A stretch of DNA of 64,000 nucleotides from a virus. The stretch lies in the IMG/VR virus record IMGVR_UViG_3300025598_000021; one strand, 5' to 3'. The notes beneath the pieces were generated by a model, which worked only from the letters and a program-made list of their open reading frames with translations, made no database searches and had not been told where the DNA came from. Both the position numbers and the translations under genes were made by a program. Below, one piece after another: positions 2,715-26,535 of the stretch (positions within the stretch are counted from its first letter, which is position 1; each line of letters begins with the position of its first letter).

Positions 2715-2983
2715 TGGTAAATGTAGTAGTATCCAGAAAGAGAACAGTCAATGTATCGACCCACGGAACTGGTGGGATCATCGATACATCTGTTCCAGTT
2801 ACTTTAAAGAATATTCCTGTACTATCCACCGGCGTGAATAGTATAGATCAGATGGTAGACGTTAATTTAACTCAAAGATCAGATGGATCTACTCTTATAT
2901 ACGATCAACCGACAGATACTTACATAGTAAAGCACGTTGATTTTACCGAGATAGATGGCAATTTAGATGGTGGCGTTTTTTAA
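2714..2983 (+). CDS. small tail-associated protein
   Basis: Translationally coupled; ends LDGGVF, like the next fibre (LDGGAF). Confidence 0.5.
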   Translation: MVNVVVSRKRTVNVSTHGTGGIIDTSVPVTLKNIPVLSTGVNSIDQMVDVNLTQRSDGSTLIYDQPTDTYIVKHVDFTEIDGNLDGGVF

Positions 2984-2985
2984 AA

Positions 2986-2993
2986 TATAAATA
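2986..2993 (+). promoter_or_regulatory. T4-type late promoter
   Basis: Intergenic TATAAATA before the fibre gene at 3021. Confidence 0.8.
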
Positions 2994-3020
2994 ATTAAAA
3001 ATTTCAGGAGAACCATTTAA

Positions 3021-5138
3021 ATGGCCAATAACAAGATTCAAATCAAAAGATCGGTAGCCAACGCCGTTGTTACTGGTCTCTCAAATGGTGAGTTAGCATA
3101 TACCCAAGCCAGTAACACTCTCTGGATCGGCCTTCCAGATGGTTCGGGCGCAGCCGCAATCGCCGGAGCGCGTTATCCTGGTACGCTTACAGCCAACCAA
3201 GCGCTCGTAGCAAACGCCACTTCCGGCATCGATAGAATCATCGTCGCCAACGCCATCGTTACGACTCTTACCGCTAACGGCTCAGTTGGTACCAACGGAC
3301 AGGTTCTCGTCACAAACGGTACTGCGATATACTGGGGCACTGGTACTTCTGGCGCGAACACCAACATTCAGTTCAACGACTCTGGCGTCGCAAACGGCGT
3401 CGCCGGCTTTACGTTCGATAAGACTCAGAACAATCTATTCGTAGCTAATTCTCTATTCGTCGGCAACACCTCGCTCGTAAGTCCGACTGCAGTAGTTAAT
3501 ACTACAATAATGTACGTCGGTAACTCGGCCGGCAACACGACACAGAACACCACTTCATTCTTTATCTCCGGCAACGGCACGACTCTACCAACCGCCACTA
3601 TGACATCGAACGGTCTGGTCGTTGGTAACAGCTCGGTAATCGGCGCGCCGACACTCGTTCTTGCGAACTCAATAGGTAACACGGTCGTAAACACTACGTC
3701 CTATACCATGAGCAACGCGAACTACGTCGTTCTAGTAGCCAACACCTCCGGTTTCTTTGCCAACCAAGGCGCCATCCAATACGTCGGTAACACTACCGCT
3801 AACACAACTCAGAACTCATCGTCGTTCTTCATCACCGGTAATACTACCACACTACCGACTGCCACACTACTCGCTAACAACCTAACCATCGGTAACAGCT
3901 CAGTAACTGGTCTGCCAGGCATCAACATTGCCAACTCGACCGGCAATACTCTTATCTCAGTAACTTCATACGCTATAAGCAACTCTACAGCCAACGTAGT
4001 TACGATCAGCACGACTGGCATCGTCGGCAACACCGGCACGTCGATCGTCCTCGGTAACACTACGGTAAACACCGTAGCCAACTCATCTACTTTCCAGGTC
4101 GTCGGCAACACATCTACTCAGGCTACTGCTACTGTCAACTCTGCCGGTATCACGATCGGTAATACTACGATCACGAGCGCCGTCAACATCTACGTCGCTA
4201 ACACGACCGGTAACATATCAGTCAATACGACGTCGCTGGCCATCGGTGGTAATACTACCACGCTTGCAGCCGTATCGGTAACCGGCAACGGTGCGCTGTT
4301 CGGCAACGGTACGGTTACAGCGGCTCCTCAGCTCGCAGTATCTAACTCTACCGGCAACACGGTAATCAATACCACTTCGTTCTTGATGAGCAACGCCACA
4401 GGCACTGTCTACAGCATGAACACGACGTCTATGACGTTCAATGGTAACACATTCCTAAACGGTACAAACACGACTATCGCCTCTAACGTTACGATCTCCG
4501 GTGCGTACGTTAACGCTCCTGCTACTGATCTTACTATCAGAAACGTTTCGGTCGGTGGTAACCTCGTCGTCACTGGCACGGTATTCTCTGTTAATACCAT
4601 AACGCTTCAGGTAAACGACAACATCATCGAGCTCGGTGACAACAACACCACATCAGACGTCGTAGATACTGGCTGGTTCTCTCCTGCAGGTAACAGCACG
4701 AGCATCTGGTATTCTGGTATGGTTCGCGTCGCTAATAGATCGACGAACGCTAATCCATACTTCTGGCTATTTGGTTCTAATACTAATCCAAACACTGCAG
4801 TCAACATAGACACTTCTTCTAACTCAGCCACGGCTACCCTGCAGGCTTACCTAGTACCATACGGTGTCGGTGGTGGATTTGTAGCCAACTCTTCGAACGT
4901 CCAGATTACTGCCAACAGCACTCTCGGCGTTAATATAGTAGCAAATACTCTAACGTTATCAACTGCTCTTGCAGGAACTGAAGGTGGTACTGGTTATAAG
5001 ACTGTTACTAATAATGCGTTATTAGTTGGTAACTCAACAAATGGTTATAATCAACTAAGTCTTGGTACTTCTGGATACGTTCTTCAGTCTAACGGCACCA
5101 CTGTCGTTTACGATATTCTTGACGGTGGAGCTTTCTAA
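3021..5138 (+). CDS. tail fibre protein
   Basis: N-terminal IQIKRS...GELAY fibre anchor motif, beta-repeat N/T/S/G-rich body, C-terminal LDGGAF; RBS AGGAG and late promoter upstream. Confidence 0.75.
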   Translation: MANNKIQIKRSVANAVVTGLSNGELAYTQASNTLWIGLPDGSGAAAIAGARYPGTLTANQALVANATSGIDRIIVANAIVTTLTANGSVGTNGQVLVTNGTAIYWGTGTSGANTNIQFNDSGVANGVAGFTFDKTQNNLFVANSLFVGNTSLVSPTAVVNTTIMYVGNSAGNTTQNTTSFFISGNGTTLPTATMTSNGLVVGNSSVIGAPTLVLANSIGNTVVNTTSYTMSNANYVVLVANTSGFFANQGAIQYVGNTTANTTQNSSSFFITGNTTTLPTATLLANNLTIGNSSVTGLPGINIANSTGNTLISVTSYAISNSTANVVTISTTGIVGNTGTSIVLGNTTVNTVANSSTFQVVGNTSTQATATVNSAGITIGNTTITSAVNIYVANTTGNISVNTTSLAIGGNTTTLAAVSVTGNGALFGNGTVTAAPQLAVSNSTGNTVINTTSFLMSNATGTVYSMNTTSMTFNGNTFLNGTNTTIASNVTISGAYVNAPATDLTIRNVSVGGNLVVTGTVFSVNTITLQVNDNIIELGDNNTTSDVVDTGWFSPAGNSTSIWYSGMVRVANRSTNANPYFWLFGSNTNPNTAVNIDTSSNSATATLQAYLVPYGVGGGFVANSSNVQITANSTLGVNIVANTLTLSTALAGTEGGTGYKTVTNNALLVGNSTNGYNQLSLGTSGYVLQSNGTTVVYDILDGGAF

Positions 5139-22273: not shown

Positions 22274-22936
22274 ATGTCTACGTTACAAGTCGCCAATATA
22301 TATTTTGAATCTTCTGGCAACAACAGGATCCAGTATCTTGGATCTAATAACTATTCTTTTTATGCCGGCGGCTTGCCTACACTCACTGTCAACACGTCCA
22401 CAGTACTGTTTACAGCTTCTATGTCGTTTACGAGCATCGGTGCAAACACAGCCAGCGCTAATACGCTTACAGCAAACTCGTTTACCGTCGTGAATAACTA
22501 CTTTGTAGCTAACGGCTGGGTAGGACTAGGCAACTCGACTCCGATAGATAAGTTCTACGTGCAGGGTAACATCGTCGCATCCGGCGACGTGACTACCTCA
22601 TACTCAGACGAGAGACTAAAGACTCTGCTCTATAAGATCGAGCGTCCTCTAGAAAAGATAAATAGTCTAAACGGCTGGGCCTATAGCCCATCTGCTCTAT
22701 CTCTGAAGTTAAATCCTGAACAGAAGAATGAAATAAAACTAGGTGTTATAGCGCAAGAAGTCGAGAGCGTACTGCCTGAGATAGTTTCTATCGCTCCTTT
22801 TGATAGAAACGCTAATGGAGAGTCTGTCTCTGGCGATAAATACCTTACGGTTAGTTATGATAGAATTGTACCTGTTTTAATTGAGGCTATAAAAGAACTG
22901 ACTTCTAGAATAGAGAAATTAGAATCTAGGAGGTAG
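22274..22936 (+). CDS. short tail fibre with peptidase S74 intramolecular chaperone
   Basis: YSDERLK cleavage motif, GVIAQEVESVLPEIV, V.YDRIVPVLIEAIKEL coiled coil. Confidence 0.85.
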   Translation: MSTLQVANIYFESSGNNRIQYLGSNNYSFYAGGLPTLTVNTSTVLFTASMSFTSIGANTASANTLTANSFTVVNNYFVANGWVGLGNSTPIDKFYVQGNIVASGDVTTSYSDERLKTLLYKIERPLEKINSLNGWAYSPSALSLKLNPEQKNEIKLGVIAQEVESVLPEIVSIAPFDRNANGESVSGDKYLTVSYDRIVPVLIEAIKELTSRIEKLESRR

Positions 22937-22938
22937 CT

Positions 22939-23112
22939 ATGGCGTTTAAGATTGGTTCGACTACTATAGTAAATAATAGTATTCAGATACCATGGTCTCA
23001 GATCGATCTTTCGTCGTATGGAAACTATATCAATTCAGTATATTTTACCGGTTCTGATAAGATCATCAACGTTTATAACTCCGGTTCAGTCTTATACATC
23101 ATAAGGACTTAA
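22939..23112 (+). CDS. 57-aa mini-protein, paralog 1 of the Cys-tailed peptide (not in ORF track)
   Basis: Manual translation MAFKIGSTTIVNNSIQIPWSQIDLSSYGNYINSVYFTGSDKIINVYNSGSVLYIIRT*; strong RBS AGGAGG; fills the gap exactly. Confidence 0.8.
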   Translation: MAFKIGSTTIVNNSIQIPWSQIDLSSYGNYINSVYFTGSDKIINVYNSGSVLYIIRT

Positions 23113-23116
23113 TAGA

Positions 23117-23293
23117 ATGGCTTTTAAGATCGGAAGCACTGTCGTTATCGATAATTCCGGAAACGTTCCATGGTCTACTGTAGGATCCATTCCTTCTGGT
23201 ACCGTGATATCTATATCGGCGCCGAGCAGCGGCGGTGGCGTATATAGAGTAAGTGGGTGGGACGGTTACAATCTGACTTTCTATAGATCATAG
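23117..23293 (+). CDS. 58-aa mini-protein, paralog 2 (not in ORF track)
   Basis: Manual translation MAFKIGSTVVIDNSGNVPWSTVGSIPSGTVISISAPSSGGGVYRVSGWDGYNLTFYRS*; RBS AAGGA; same N-terminus as its neighbours. Confidence 0.8.
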   Translation: MAFKIGSTVVIDNSGNVPWSTVGSIPSGTVISISAPSSGGGVYRVSGWDGYNLTFYRS

Positions 23294-23304
23294 GTCAACA
23301 CACG

Positions 23305-23562
23305 ATGGCGTTAAAAGTAAACACGACTACGGTCTTCAACAACAGCGCAAAGATTCCATACACGCAGGTGAGTGGTTTTCCACAGCTTGTGACTTCTGCT
23401 AGTTCTACTCCTACAGGTGATGGCACTAATCCGATCGGTGGCACAGGCACCTACTGCTACGCTTTCAGCTTCAGTGGTGGATCGCTAGTCGCTACATTTG
23501 ATACTAACTGTGCATGCGTTTGTGCGTGCTGCTGTTGTTGCGCCTGCTGTTGTAACTGTTAG
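23305..23562 (+). CDS. Cys-tailed peptide; candidate radical SAM substrate (RiPP-like precursor / fibre-tip subunit)
   Basis: Ends NCACVCACCCCCACCCNC*; N-terminus MALKVNTTTVFNNS..IPY paralogous to the two upstream mini-ORFs; lies near an rSAM/SPASM gene. Confidence 0.8.
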   Translation: MALKVNTTTVFNNSAKIPYTQVSGFPQLVTSASSTPTGDGTNPIGGTGTYCYAFSFSGGSLVATFDTNCACVCACCCCCACCCNC

Positions 23563-23570
23563 TTAGAGTT

Positions 23571-24458
23571 ATGGCAACTAATTTAAAGATATTCACATAT
23601 GGTTCGAACAATCCATCAATAGCGTCGATTACAGAATCATCTAATGGAAATATTGAAATAAGAATTAAGGCGGTCGATCAGCTATCTTATGACATGCCTA
23701 ATGAAGACGCGTGCAACTATATTTGGAACTTCAATCCAAAAGAATTATTAAAGTCTAAAGACCAATGTCCAAATAAAGCAGGAGTCTTTGATCTAGTAGG
23801 TTTTTCGACCAAAGACATAGTGAAGGGGACACCGATAGTTACTCCTCCGCTAGTCAATAGACTTAAGACGTACTATCAGTCTAACTTTAAAAGACTAGAG
23901 AGTAATGACTTCTTTGGCTCAATAGATATAAATCCTAAACACACAAATATATCTCTGCGCATGCAGGCCAACTGCAAGATAATTTCAAACCTATCATATG
24001 ATACCTTTGATTATGTAAAAGACAATGGTTATACGCAAGCACTTGGCACGTCTATATTAATTACGCCGCCGTCGAATAAGCACCAAGGAAACACCACGCC
24101 AGTGCCACAAGACGTGTATCCTTTTACTCTTTCATACAGTGGTCCTACGCAGATACCACTAAGTGGCGGAATATTTAATATATCATTCGACTTTGATAAT
24201 CATGGAATAAAAGGTAAAGGTGGTAAGAACAAGAATCCAGGTAAAAAACCAGGTCAAGAGTATCATGACTTGTGCGACTACAACGTAGTATATGCCAACG
24301 CTGATAAAGGTAAGATCGATCCTTCTTGTAAGATAATAAATAAAAAAGGAAGTATAAGCTTTGATCCTACTGGGCTGTCAGTAGGAGACACAGTTACGGT
24401 AGATATTGGAGTGCACTGGTTTCTACTATCAATAAGAATACAGTTTCAAATAATATAA
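23571..24458 (+). CDS. hypothetical protein with beta-rich/Ig-like C-terminus; accessory of the rSAM cluster
   Basis: 295 aa ORF between the peptide and the rSAM; C-terminal G.ISF...GL..GDTVTV.IG beta-strand pattern. Confidence 0.5.
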   Translation: MATNLKIFTYGSNNPSIASITESSNGNIEIRIKAVDQLSYDMPNEDACNYIWNFNPKELLKSKDQCPNKAGVFDLVGFSTKDIVKGTPIVTPPLVNRLKTYYQSNFKRLESNDFFGSIDINPKHTNISLRMQANCKIISNLSYDTFDYVKDNGYTQALGTSILITPPSNKHQGNTTPVPQDVYPFTLSYSGPTQIPLSGGIFNISFDFDNHGIKGKGGKNKNPGKKPGQEYHDLCDYNVVYANADKGKIDPSCKIINKKGSISFDPTGLSVGDTVTVDIGVHWFLLSIRIQFQII

Positions 24459-24475
24459 ATGATAAGGATTTTATT

Positions 24476-25792
24476 ATGTTTGAATTGATTATGATAGATC
24501 AAGAAAATAAAAGACGTTCTATATTTTATGATCCACATAAGTCTACCGTCTCTGATAAAGATGGAAAAGATATACTAATAACTGATGTTAAACCTCATTC
24601 TTGCTTTAAGAAAGCAATAGGTATATCGCCGACAAATCCTGGCTCAAAGGTATCCAAATTAAGTAAAATTCGTATCCAGTTAGGACTCGGGTGTAACTAT
24701 TCATGCTCGTACTGTCTTCAGAAAGATCAAATTAAAGATTCAACAAAGACAAGTCTTAGAGACGCTGAAATATTCATGAAGAATCTAGACAAGTGGGTAG
24801 AAGGAGCTCCAGCAGAGATTGAGTTCTGGGGAGGTGAGCCTCTTCTTTATTGGAATAAGATTAAGTTTCTTCTTGAAAAATTAACTGAAAGATTTCCGGA
24901 AGTTTCATATCTTATTATCACCAACGGAAGCTTGATAGATGACGATTTTATTGAGACCGTAGAGAAATATAACATTAGAGTCGCTATATCTCATGATGGT
25001 CCTGGTCAGTATAACCGAGGACCAGATCCATTAGACAATCCTATACAGTTTGAGATGATTAAGAAGTTCTTCGATCGTAGAAAAAACAACATGAGTTTTA
25101 ACTCAGTGATCACCCCTTCTAATATGAATCTCGATAAGATAGAACAGTTCTTTAAATCAAAGTTTGGTCAAGAAGCGAGAATAAGTTTTGAAGGTGTAGT
25201 GATAAACTACGACGACGGTGAGTCAAATACTTTTACTACTGAGCAGTATAATGAACTTTCTAAGAACGTAGCGATGTCTTGTATGAGACCATTTGAGAAT
25301 CTACCTAATACGTTCCAGATAAAGATTCGCGAATTCATGAAGACTCTACAGAATAAGTTAAGTTCTGATTCTGTATTTCAGAAGTGCGGAATGGACAGAG
25401 AAGACTATATAGCCGTAGATCTATTAGGTAACGTCATGACGTGTCAGAATACTGGTTCTACTGGAAAGCATAGAATTGGACACGTCTATTCGCTAGATAA
25501 AGTTAAACTTAATACGTCGTGGCATTGGTCGCAGAGAGAAGAATGCTCCCACTGTCCCGTGCTGCAGCTATGTGCAGGATCGTGCATGTATGTTGAGGGT
25601 CCAAGCTGGTATCACTCGTGCAACAATGAATACTACTACAACATGGGAATACTCGCAGGAGCGATGTATCATATGACTGGAATGATCTTAGAAGAAGTAA
25701 AAGGAGAGACCTGGAGGCCGGATCCAGCTGACTATGGCGTTACTATTAAAGATCATAGTCAAAATATAGTTGATGGACTTTTAGAAGTATGA
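24476..25792 (+). CDS. radical SAM enzyme with SPASM domain (peptide/protein maturase type)
   Basis: CNYSCSYC (CxxxCxxC), FWGGEPLL, ITNG, ISHDG; SPASM Cys pattern CG...C...CSHC...CAGSC...C. Confidence 0.92.
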   Translation: MFELIMIDQENKRRSIFYDPHKSTVSDKDGKDILITDVKPHSCFKKAIGISPTNPGSKVSKLSKIRIQLGLGCNYSCSYCLQKDQIKDSTKTSLRDAEIFMKNLDKWVEGAPAEIEFWGGEPLLYWNKIKFLLEKLTERFPEVSYLIITNGSLIDDDFIETVEKYNIRVAISHDGPGQYNRGPDPLDNPIQFEMIKKFFDRRKNNMSFNSVITPSNMNLDKIEQFFKSKFGQEARISFEGVVINYDDGESNTFTTEQYNELSKNVAMSCMRPFENLPNTFQIKIREFMKTLQNKLSSDSVFQKCGMDREDYIAVDLLGNVMTCQNTGSTGKHRIGHVYSLDKVKLNTSWHWSQREECSHCPVLQLCAGSCMYVEGPSWYHSCNNEYYYNMGILAGAMYHMTGMILEEVKGETWRPDPADYGVTIKDHSQNIVDGLLEV

Positions 25793-26535
25793 GACAGCTA
25801 AAGATAGATGAGACCGTTTGTCTTGATGATTTAGTAGATGTAGAAGAACTTAAGTCTCTTCATGATAGATTATGTGTGTCTATAGCCAATGCGTACGACG
25901 ACGGAAGAGTTTCAGTACAGTCTCTTGGAAATTTGCTGTCTGAGAGATATCCATATCCTAGCATACTAGATAAATTTATTCAATTTGGAAAAGCTAAAGT
26001 AAATATTCCTAAAGAAATAGACAATAATGACAAGCTATTAAGATACATAATGTTCACTGAAAAGACTACCGGAATAGCTAGTGTAATAAGTATATTTAAT
26101 TATAAAATCAGCGATGATCATAAAATTAGTAAAAACTATAAAGAATTTTATTCTATAATAGAGTGGATAAAGAAACAGGATCTATACTCAGAACTTATAC
26201 AGTGTAATCTAGTATTAAGTCAGAGCGGTGAACCAACACCTATTCACGATCATCCTAGACCAAAGAGTTTTCCAAATAGCTTTGAAGAAATAGACGAAGA
26301 GACAAGATTTTCTTTATGGATAAGACTTAACACTGATAGAAAATTATTCATGTACGATCATAAAACAAAAACTAAACACTATATAAAAGACAAAGATGGC
26401 GGTGGACTGGTGTTCTATTGGGATTCTAGCAGCTTCCATGGTGCCGATCCGTCATGGAACGCCACGTACGCGTTCGTGATAACGGGTATTCCATCAAAAA
26501 AACTGTTTGATTTTATTGATCAAAAACTCAAATAA
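25789..26535 (+). CDS. cupin/DSBH Fe(II) oxygenase-like protein
   Basis: TPIHDH...FYWDSSSFHGAD metal-ligand spacing; ATGA-coupled to the rSAM gene. Confidence 0.6.
   Translation: MRQLKIDETVCLDDLVDVEELKSLHDRLCVSIANAYDDGRVSVQSLGNLLSERYPYPSILDKFIQFGKAKVNIPKEIDNNDKLLRYIMFTEKTTGIASVISIFNYKISDDHKISKNYKEFYSIIEWIKKQDLYSELIQCNLVLSQSGEPTPIHDHPRPKSFPNSFEEIDEETRFSLWIRLNTDRKLFMYDHKTKTKHYIKDKDGGGLVFYWDSSSFHGADPSWNATYAFVITGIPSKKLFDFIDQKLK

Follow-up and report, generated by a model that had tools for sequence, protein, structure and literature searches.

The product of a small phage gene, an 85-amino acid protein that we call P0001, is best explained as a trimeric protein of a tail-fibre module whose C-terminal cysteine tract is cross-linked through thioethers into a stapled tip by a radical SAM enzyme; we consider this reading probably correct. 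The gene lies in the window, by which we mean the whole 64,000-nt stretch of viral DNA that was analysed. The pairing of such a tract with the enzyme recurs in about 100 sampled phage and prophage loci, which points to enzymatic modification of fibre tips, and the fibre-associated module of radical SAM enzyme and cysteine tract is widespread.

Radical SAM cross-linking is known for small secreted peptides, and is not known from a viral host-recognition apparatus; the literature that we searched contains no description of Cys-repeat fibre tails with radical SAM enzymes. If fibre tips are enzymatically stapled, this would be a new kind of virion post-translational modification beside the HK97-type capsid cross-links, and it would affect host-range engineering, because a transplanted fibre might need its enzyme. 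It would also account for radical SAM cassettes that have been noted, without an explanation, in host-recognition clusters of pelagimyophages, which are marine T4-like phages (PMC7029224). The system is easily tested, since phages JWF and RSP15 are in culture and the 85-aa substrate is within the size range of mass spectrometry.

Table 1. Coordinates of the features discussed; positions refer to the window unless a locus (L number) is named.
Feature	Position	Strand	Evidence
Tail fibre piece, 220 aa, C-terminal self-cleaving chaperone domain	22274-22936	+	Pfam Peptidase_S74 1.1e-09; 40 PHROG tail-fibre families
Mini-protein paralogue 1, 57 aa, shared N-terminal motif, without Cys tail	22939-23112	+	Alignment A2
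Mini-protein paralogue 2, 58 aa, shared N-terminal motif, without Cys tail	23117-23293	+	Alignment A2
Cys-tailed mini-protein P0001, 85 aa	23305-23562	+	Family alignment A4, AF2, trimer prediction, 114 representative clusters
(Cys-X)8-Cys tract, Asn before, stop codon after	23509-23559	+	Translation, repeat search, pattern count, family statistics
Partner protein A, 295 aa, C-terminal Ig-like (intimin/invasin-type) domain	23571-24458	+	Family clustering, AF2, VIA
Radical SAM enzyme, full SPASM domain, 438 aa, presumed tract modifier	24476-25792	+	PF04055 4.6e-13; phrog_1802 3.9e-59
248-aa protein, probable cupin/2OG-oxygenase-like (lead only)	25789-26535	+	ESM Atlas
Mini-protein trio, window	22939-23562		
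Mini-protein trio, L009	1904-2565		
Mini-protein trio, L164	299-922		
Hint-bearing carrier, L001 (JWF gp028)	2835-4286		
Hint-bearing carrier, L012	4653-5480		
Hint-bearing carrier, L016	4370-5224		
Hint-bearing carrier, L029	3752-5173		
Hint-bearing carrier, L065	4246-5049		
Hint-bearing carrier, L077	3504-5075		
Hint-bearing carrier, L081	3957-5102		
Hint-bearing carrier, L127	3208-4338		
235-aa protein with 25-Cys tract, L070	6-713		
Tandem-module proteins P0125 (1601 aa), P0162 (4676 aa), P0229 (1676 aa), P0207 (984 aa), P0213 (601 aa)			
Chromosomal precursors, L084, L087, L088, L091, L093, L095, L100, L113, L116, L120	~200 bases before enzyme gene		

The cysteine tract

P0001 ends ...SLVATFDTN-CACVCACCCCCACCCNC, followed by a TAG stop codon at 23560-23562. 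The tract comprises 17 residues, with Cys at every odd position (1, 3, ..., 17; nine of nine) and additional Cys at even positions 8, 10 and 14; the remaining even positions are A, V, A, A and N. The protein contains 13 Cys in all, of which 12 are in the tract and one (Cys51) is in the body. The translation agrees with the original prediction of a strict (Cys-X)8-Cys register that runs to the stop codon. The accompanying claim, that mixed codons distinguish the tract from a microsatellite, is likewise borne out: the tract's Cys codons are seven TGT and five TGC, the three Ala codons are all different (GCA, GCG and GCC), and Tandem Repeats Finder detects no array between 23300 and 23600. DNA slippage was rejected as the origin of the tract, since the window has no tandem repeat there. 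A degenerate DNA pattern that specifies Cys at every second codon (TGYNNNTGYNNNTGYNNNTGY) occurs eight times in the window, six of them within the tract, versus an expectation of 0.12 from shuffled sequences. Both Cys codons are used in 61 of 97 distinct tract DNAs from related loci, and the commonest hexamer fills on average only 39% of a tract. The tract is under selection at the protein level.

To judge from its homologues, the reading frame is a genuine gene. The closest, in locus L009, is 51% identical over 84 residues (BLASTP E 2.6e-17) and lies in the same gene order, and a second is found in L164. Pfam and PHROG give no match for P0001, and neither do the NCBIfam precursor families, SCIFF included, in agreement with the difference from SCIFF that had been proposed. 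A word-based homologue search with the 85-aa protein returned nothing, tblastn against phage records yielded only noise, with the tail masked by the low-complexity filter, and a single-sequence locus search of viral contigs was equally empty; relatives emerged only after use of an alignment of the enzyme.

Association of the tract with the enzyme

A search at E <= 1e-20 yields 2253 relatives of the enzyme, 40 of which were aligned (alignment A1). With A1, 80 viral and 80 genomic loci were sampled, and the annotated Achromobacter phage JWF and Ralstonia phage RSP15 were added. The resulting set holds 149 non-identical enzyme relatives, 121 of them with at least 3 kb of upstream DNA. An upstream same-strand frame with (CX)>=3C is present in 97 of the 121 loci (80%), and the motif rate is 22.3 per 100,000 aa in the upstream frames versus 0.83 in the remaining frames of these loci, a 27-fold enrichment. 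The association is also found in the reverse direction: L164, which was looked up blind to the enzyme, encodes two Cys-less mini-proteins, a Cys-tailed one, partner A (E 2e-12) and the enzyme (49% identity, E 2e-56). For the two cultured phages, JWF and RSP15, the enzyme gene (gp030 and gp045, respectively) is inside the annotated tail-fibre block, and the fibre proteins (gp028 and gp048) end N-CNCDCNCNCSC and N-CQCGN, respectively.

The 98 distinct tracts contain 4 (44 tracts), 5 (21), 6 (13), 7 (12), 8 (4), 9 (3) or 25 (1) in-register Cys, which places the nine of the window at the upper end of the distribution. The X residues are N (214), A (68), D (52), R (30), K (17), Q (13), V (8), Y (8) and C (5). 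Because extra Cys at X are rare, the tract of the window is the most Cys-dense one seen. Asn precedes the first Cys in 83 of the 98 tracts, and in 86 no more than nine residues separate the tract from the stop codon. The expectation that odd-position Cys are kept among homologues while even positions vary holds: the first four in-register Cys are at least 90% conserved in family alignment A4, and X varies among the tracts as listed. The register is not absolute. The closest homologue, in L009, departs from it after ...DTN-CAC, where VPADCANCGACE follows, and reads CAC-VPAD-C-AN-C-GA-C-E.

The implied coupling of tail and enzyme stands for most of the loci and fails in a few relatives that keep the enzyme without a long tract. 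In a FastTree phylogeny of 143 enzymes, tracts occur on both halves of the tree, and most entries scored as lacking a tract are short CXC cases. The true exceptions are L006/L008, L059/L066 and a clade of 11 Comamonadaceae chromosomal loci. L006 and L008 are second enzyme copies on contigs that carry a tract elsewhere. In L059 and L066 the enzyme lies beside FAD-motif proteins and there is no tract; their relative L070 has the 25-Cys tract.

Loci of this chromosomal sister clade in Comamonadaceae (genera Variovorax, Polaromonas and Ramlibacter) encode a 64-72 aa precursor directly before the enzyme, with a single [DN]-C core (e.g., ...GSSSDCSAISPLP...). The C-terminus of the precursor is basic, and just upstream of it is a protein of approximately 780 aa that ends ...HPFT. 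The clade looks like an ordinary, previously undescribed RiPP cluster related to the phage system. Given its single [DN]-C core, X-Cys (usually Asn-Cys or Asp-Cys) looks like the unit recognised by the enzyme, and by sequence the phage tracts look like tandem iterations of that unit.

Carriers of the tract

Carriers range from mini-proteins of 61 aa to fibres of more than 700 aa, and the same type of tract ends trimeric tail fibres of 300-730 aa. In the L062 carrier, a Phage_T7_tail domain at the N-terminus, triple-helix repeats of collagen and a CBM5/12 module precede the (CX) tract; the L052 carrier contains collagen. Because the large carriers are trimeric fibres whose N-terminal end binds the tail, the tract is at the distal end. 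Nine carriers, JWF gp028 among them, have a Hint domain with Cys as its first residue 0-7 residues behind the tract (Table 1), and self-cleavage by Hint would leave a thioester or a free carboxyl exactly at the tract end. Whether through a stop codon or through Hint, the tract is always the mature C-terminus. The last Cys of the tract is sometimes also the first Cys of Hint.

The mini-protein family to which P0001 belongs is coherent and spans 61-111 aa; a MAYKVGTTIVIDDSG.V.W.RI-like motif marks the N-terminus, the beta body varies, and the tail consists of N and then (CX)nC. In P0001 itself, the N-terminal motif is MA[LFY]K[VI]..T.V..NS...P, the body is a beta-sheet and the C-terminal part is (Cys-X)8-Cys. 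A profile of the family, run against 1.84 billion representatives, identified 114 clusters, 96 of them small (<=135 aa). Among these 96, 52 end in (CX)>=3C and 10 in CXCXC, and many of the remainder are fragments or have irregular Cys spacing. One subfamily near the protein of the window has hydrophobic X residues (e.g., ...FNTN-CACVCVCVCACDCAC-E). Proteins of 600-4700 aa contain 4-12 copies of the N-terminal module in tandem, an arrangement which suggests by sequence that the module is a fibre repeat unit.

P0001 and its two shorter paralogues share their first ~22 residues (alignment A2). BLASTP matches of paralogue 2 are to the N-termini of Cys-tailed mini-proteins from Rhodobacteraceae prophages. 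The trio of two Cys-less proteins and one Cys-tailed protein is kept in at least three phages (Table 1). The three proteins could assemble into one heterotrimer that bears a single Cys tail, instead of three homotrimers. Since the two paralogues share the N-terminus and contain no Cys at all, not every member of the trio can be a substrate.

The AF2 monomer model of P0001 has a pLDDT of 74.7, with strands at residues 2-5, 8-11, 31-37, 50-57 and 60-66; the tail (residues 69-85), for which the original prediction had a beta-strand with thiols on one face, has no strand or other regular structure, with a pLDDT of ~50. A search with the P0001 model against viral structures gave nothing significant. 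Prediction of a complex of three copies gave a median ipSAE of 0.58, versus 0.00 for the best of three controls, with at least 51% of contacts in common between runs and a partner pLDDT of at least 56. The contacts are symmetric and in register (51-51, 50-50, 63-63, 29-29 and 22-22). When the tool was calibrated, 20 of 30 solved pairs and 1 of 23 single chains attained its mark; that calibration used two copies and the tool's own alignments and applies only roughly to three copies and a custom alignment. According to these models, P0001 probably forms a parallel trimer. The designation of the tract as a peptide tail, which the original prediction used, is too narrow for proteins of this kind: the same tract ends long trimeric fibres, P0001 is itself predicted to trimerise, and the carriers are not a free-peptide family.

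The radical SAM/SPASM enzyme

Assignment of the enzyme to the radical SAM superfamily is clear (PF04055, 50.1 bits versus a cut-off of 29.5), and the CX3CX2C motif is present, with C73, C77 and C80 invariant in the 40 sequences of A1. The seven Cys of a SPASM domain are also invariant in A1 (C304, G318-x4-C323, C357, C360, C366, C370 and C382), and align with the SPASM regions of anSME and CteB. Among the named NCBIfam families PapB (NF047865) scores best, still far under its threshold (95.6 bits versus 340); further scores are those of the SCIFF maturase (TIGR03974; 63.5 versus 425), CcpM (61.8 versus 500), TIGR03906 (57 versus 453) and anSME (TIGR03942; 55.7 versus 349). The nearest named families are all RiPP maturases, and membership in the PapB, SCIFF-maturase or anaerobic-sulfatase-maturase family was rejected, as each score is far below the curated cut-off.

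By sequence, the nearest solved structures are 8vpo, then anSME and CteB. Structure 8vpo was published in a paper on radical SAM cyclopropyl synthases, and the NCBIfam maturases are far below their cut-offs, so that sequence similarity does not fix the chemistry. In the region of auxiliary cluster I, where anSME has two Cys in 'CGMNGTC', HMMER alignments place a single Cys in the enzyme of the window, and likewise in CteB and 8vpo. For CteB, this arrangement of Cys is reported to keep an iron of auxiliary cluster I open for binding by a substrate cysteine. A CteB-like auxiliary cluster I would make Cys-directed cross-linking the most likely chemistry of the enzyme.

Partner proteins and phage context

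The window derives from a 125.5-kb viral record that is approximately 74% complete. This record belongs to a T4-like myovirus, with genes for terminase, sheath, portal, scaffold and a gp23-like major head protein, and its major head protein is 62-68% identical to the counterparts in Stenotrophomonas phage DLP6, Sinorhizobium phage phiM12 and Pelagibacter phage Mosig. Genes of the window are on the + strand throughout, and Pfam and PHROG identify fibre genes on both sides of the Cys-tailed cassette. The S74 fibre piece is a marker of the fibre module, and related S74 fibres lie upstream in many of the related loci. The cassette has no blastn matches in phage records, no protease or exporter was recognised by Pfam, PHROG or NCBIfam among the neighbours of the 85-aa gene that were searched, and there is no sulfatase substrate near the enzyme gene.

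Clustering of neighbouring ORFs gives a recurrent order of a tract-bearing fibre or mini-protein, A, often B, and the enzyme. The A family (~300 aa; membership assigned by clustering) is present in 102 related loci, usually right after the carrier, and family B (~230 aa) in 79, often between A and the enzyme. Pfam, PHROG and NCBIfam have no match for partner A of the window, and BLASTP against the neighbouring proteins of JWF and RSP15 is insignificant except for a short C-terminal match to RSP15 gp047 (E 0.016). Its AF2 model has a pLDDT of 62 overall and ~90 for the C-terminal domain, which VIA aligns with intimin (Z 9.4, rmsd 2.3, 85 aligned residues). Because fold searches return generic Ig-like matches only (Foldseek E at best 4.5e-3, besides the VIA match), no function follows from them; the model suggests a structural or chaperone role for A.

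Proteins of family B are 2OG-Fe(II)-oxygenase-like. Their Pfam PF13759 matches are weak, and their profile matches the structural-genomics proteins 3bvc and 2rg4; its matches to known hydroxylases are weak. The 248-aa protein encoded after the enzyme of the window, whose start overlaps the enzyme's stop codon (ATGA), contains the pattern HDH...H and lies near clusters of phage Asp/Asn beta-hydroxylases (PF05118) in the ESM Atlas (features 0.95, TM 0.59-0.63). It has no Pfam match and no similarity to RSP15 gp046, and its membership in family B could not be demonstrated (hhalign probability 0.1%). A tie between Asn/Asp-rich tracts and family B was rejected, as N/D-rich loci have B in 48 of 78 cases and N/D-poor loci in 18 of 27.

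Proposed modification and alternatives

In the mechanism that we favour, P0001 would be a small structural protein of the tail-fibre module, probably a parallel trimer, and its C-terminal (X-Cys)9 tract would be acted on by the SPASM enzyme whose gene is the second one downstream. The enzyme would probably act with the Ig-like partner A and the oxygenase-like protein encoded after it. It would most likely abstract hydrogen atoms and join the Cys sulfurs to nearby carbons, giving thioethers of the sactionine or ranthionine type within or between the three chains. In this way a poly-Cys end that is flexible and prone to oxidation would become a covalently stapled fibre tip, which would be incorporated into the virion and may serve stability or receptor contact. 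Since X ranges from Asn/Asp to Ala, Val, Leu and Lys, a side-chain-specific Cys-Asn link cannot be the general product. The wider proposition is one that we advance tentatively, as a possibility short of probable: many phages of Proteobacteria may staple the ends of their receptor-binding fibres with a radical SAM enzyme, an Ig-like partner and oxygenases, which would convert (X-Cys)n into an intra- or inter-chain thioether ladder or an alternating D/L structure. Stapled fibres would amount to a RiPP-type modification of a virion structural protein, with the mature end set by Hint or by the stop codon.

The enzyme might instead modify the tract without forming thioethers, through epimerisation of alternate residues (D-Cys or D-X, proteusin-type), conversion of Cys to formylglycine, or C-C links, all of which are known for SPASM enzymes. 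A strict two-residue period would suit alternate epimerisation, and the two best solved relatives are 8vpo, with its cyclopropyl-synthase background, and anSME; however, the conserved residue of the tract is Cys and not X, and the three-Cys pattern of auxiliary cluster I is common to CteB, not to anSME. We regard these chemistries as unlikely.

Quite unlikely, in our estimation, is a tract that remains unmodified and acts as a metal-thiolate ladder or as an inter-chain disulfide zipper of the trimer, with the enzyme acting on partner A, another residue or a small molecule. With alternate spacing, the Cys of three parallel chains would stack in the trimer, and X is unconstrained, as would be expected if thiols alone mattered. 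The His-X-His iron ladder at the tip of the T4 long fibre (gp37) is a precedent for alternating residues of the metal-binding type at the distal end of a trimeric fibre, although these are His instead of Cys, the proteins are not related in sequence, and the phage module described here has a dedicated radical SAM enzyme. A ladder does not explain why tract and enzyme occur together in four-fifths of the loci and in the blind reverse look-up, nor why auxiliary cluster I of the enzyme is CteB-like, and the one [DN]-C that the chromosomal clade keeps beside the enzyme cannot form a ladder.

A classical RiPP, with the N-terminal ~25 residues as leader, the Cys tract as core, and a diffusible product (a toxin, signal or metal chelator) that is not part of the virion, would fit the small size of P0001, its conserved N-terminus and variable middle, the adjoining SPASM maturase with RiPP maturases as nearest named families, and the RiPP-like precursors of the chromosomal clade, but is improbable given that the same tract terminates long fibres with T7-fibre and collagen domains, that the locus is within a fibre module with no protease or exporter recognised among the neighbours searched, that the same 'leader' is present on paralogues without Cys, that its tandem repetition fits a structural repeat and not a leader, and that P0001 is predicted to be a homotrimer.

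Comparison with known systems

Close known counterparts of the phage system are CteB/CteA (SCIFF) and PapB/PapA (freyrasin), ranthipeptide systems that likewise consist of a SPASM enzyme encoded beside a Cys-rich substrate. The enzyme of the window aligns with CteB and PapB over the whole core and the SPASM domain; CteB likewise has a single Cys in its auxiliary cluster I region, and the motifs on which PapB acts are tandem repeats as well. The spacing is different, with Cys at every second residue in the tract of the window, not the CX3D or the SCIFF pattern. In addition, the SCIFF and freyrasin substrates are peptides of ~45 aa, whereas the substrate here would be a fibre-module protein or a full tail fibre, and compared with the ranthipeptide systems the phage module adds the conserved ~300-aa Ig-like partner and often 2OG-oxygenase-like genes.

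The streptococcal NxxcB/NxxcA system, which forms a thioether from Cys to the beta-carbon of Asn, was compared by description. The likeness is in the Asn, which precedes most tracts and is the commonest X, but whole phage subfamilies, that of the window included, have Ala, Val, Leu or Cys at X. A precedent for thioether cross-linking by a SPASM enzyme inside a subunit of a larger assembly is QhpD/QhpC of quinohemoprotein amine dehydrogenase; the enzyme of the window matches the QhpD family (TIGR03906) weakly, and the substrate there is a subunit of a periplasmic enzyme, not a phage fibre. anSME is the annotation of the JWF homologue of the enzyme, and its SPASM fold aligns over residues 70-373, but the enzyme of the window is missing the second Cys of the anSME motif, in a family whose eight Cys fully ligate both auxiliary clusters, and scores far below the family cut-off. 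Fibres with S74 chaperones offer a parallel at the level of maturation, since their C-terminal domain removes itself and exposes the mature tip; here, this position is taken by Hint, and S74 is found in the neighbouring fibre.

Further observations on the loci

Many carriers continue beyond the last Cys with a short Gly/Asp-rich extension (GG, GDA, GGGDGGG or SGGGGGG), and others stop exactly on Cys, often as R-C or Y-C. The 25-Cys tract of L070 has mostly Lys at X (CKCKCQCK...), and its gene lies ~5 kb upstream of the related enzyme, among genes for proteins with FAD-binding-type N-termini; loci L059 and L066 share this neighbourhood. Paralogous copies of the enzyme occur approximately 14 kb apart on one viral contig in two cases (L003/L008 and L005/L006). 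In these contigs, one copy follows a Cys-tailed 61-aa protein and A, and the other follows unrelated genes without a Cys tract, with a 918-aa fibre gene downstream.
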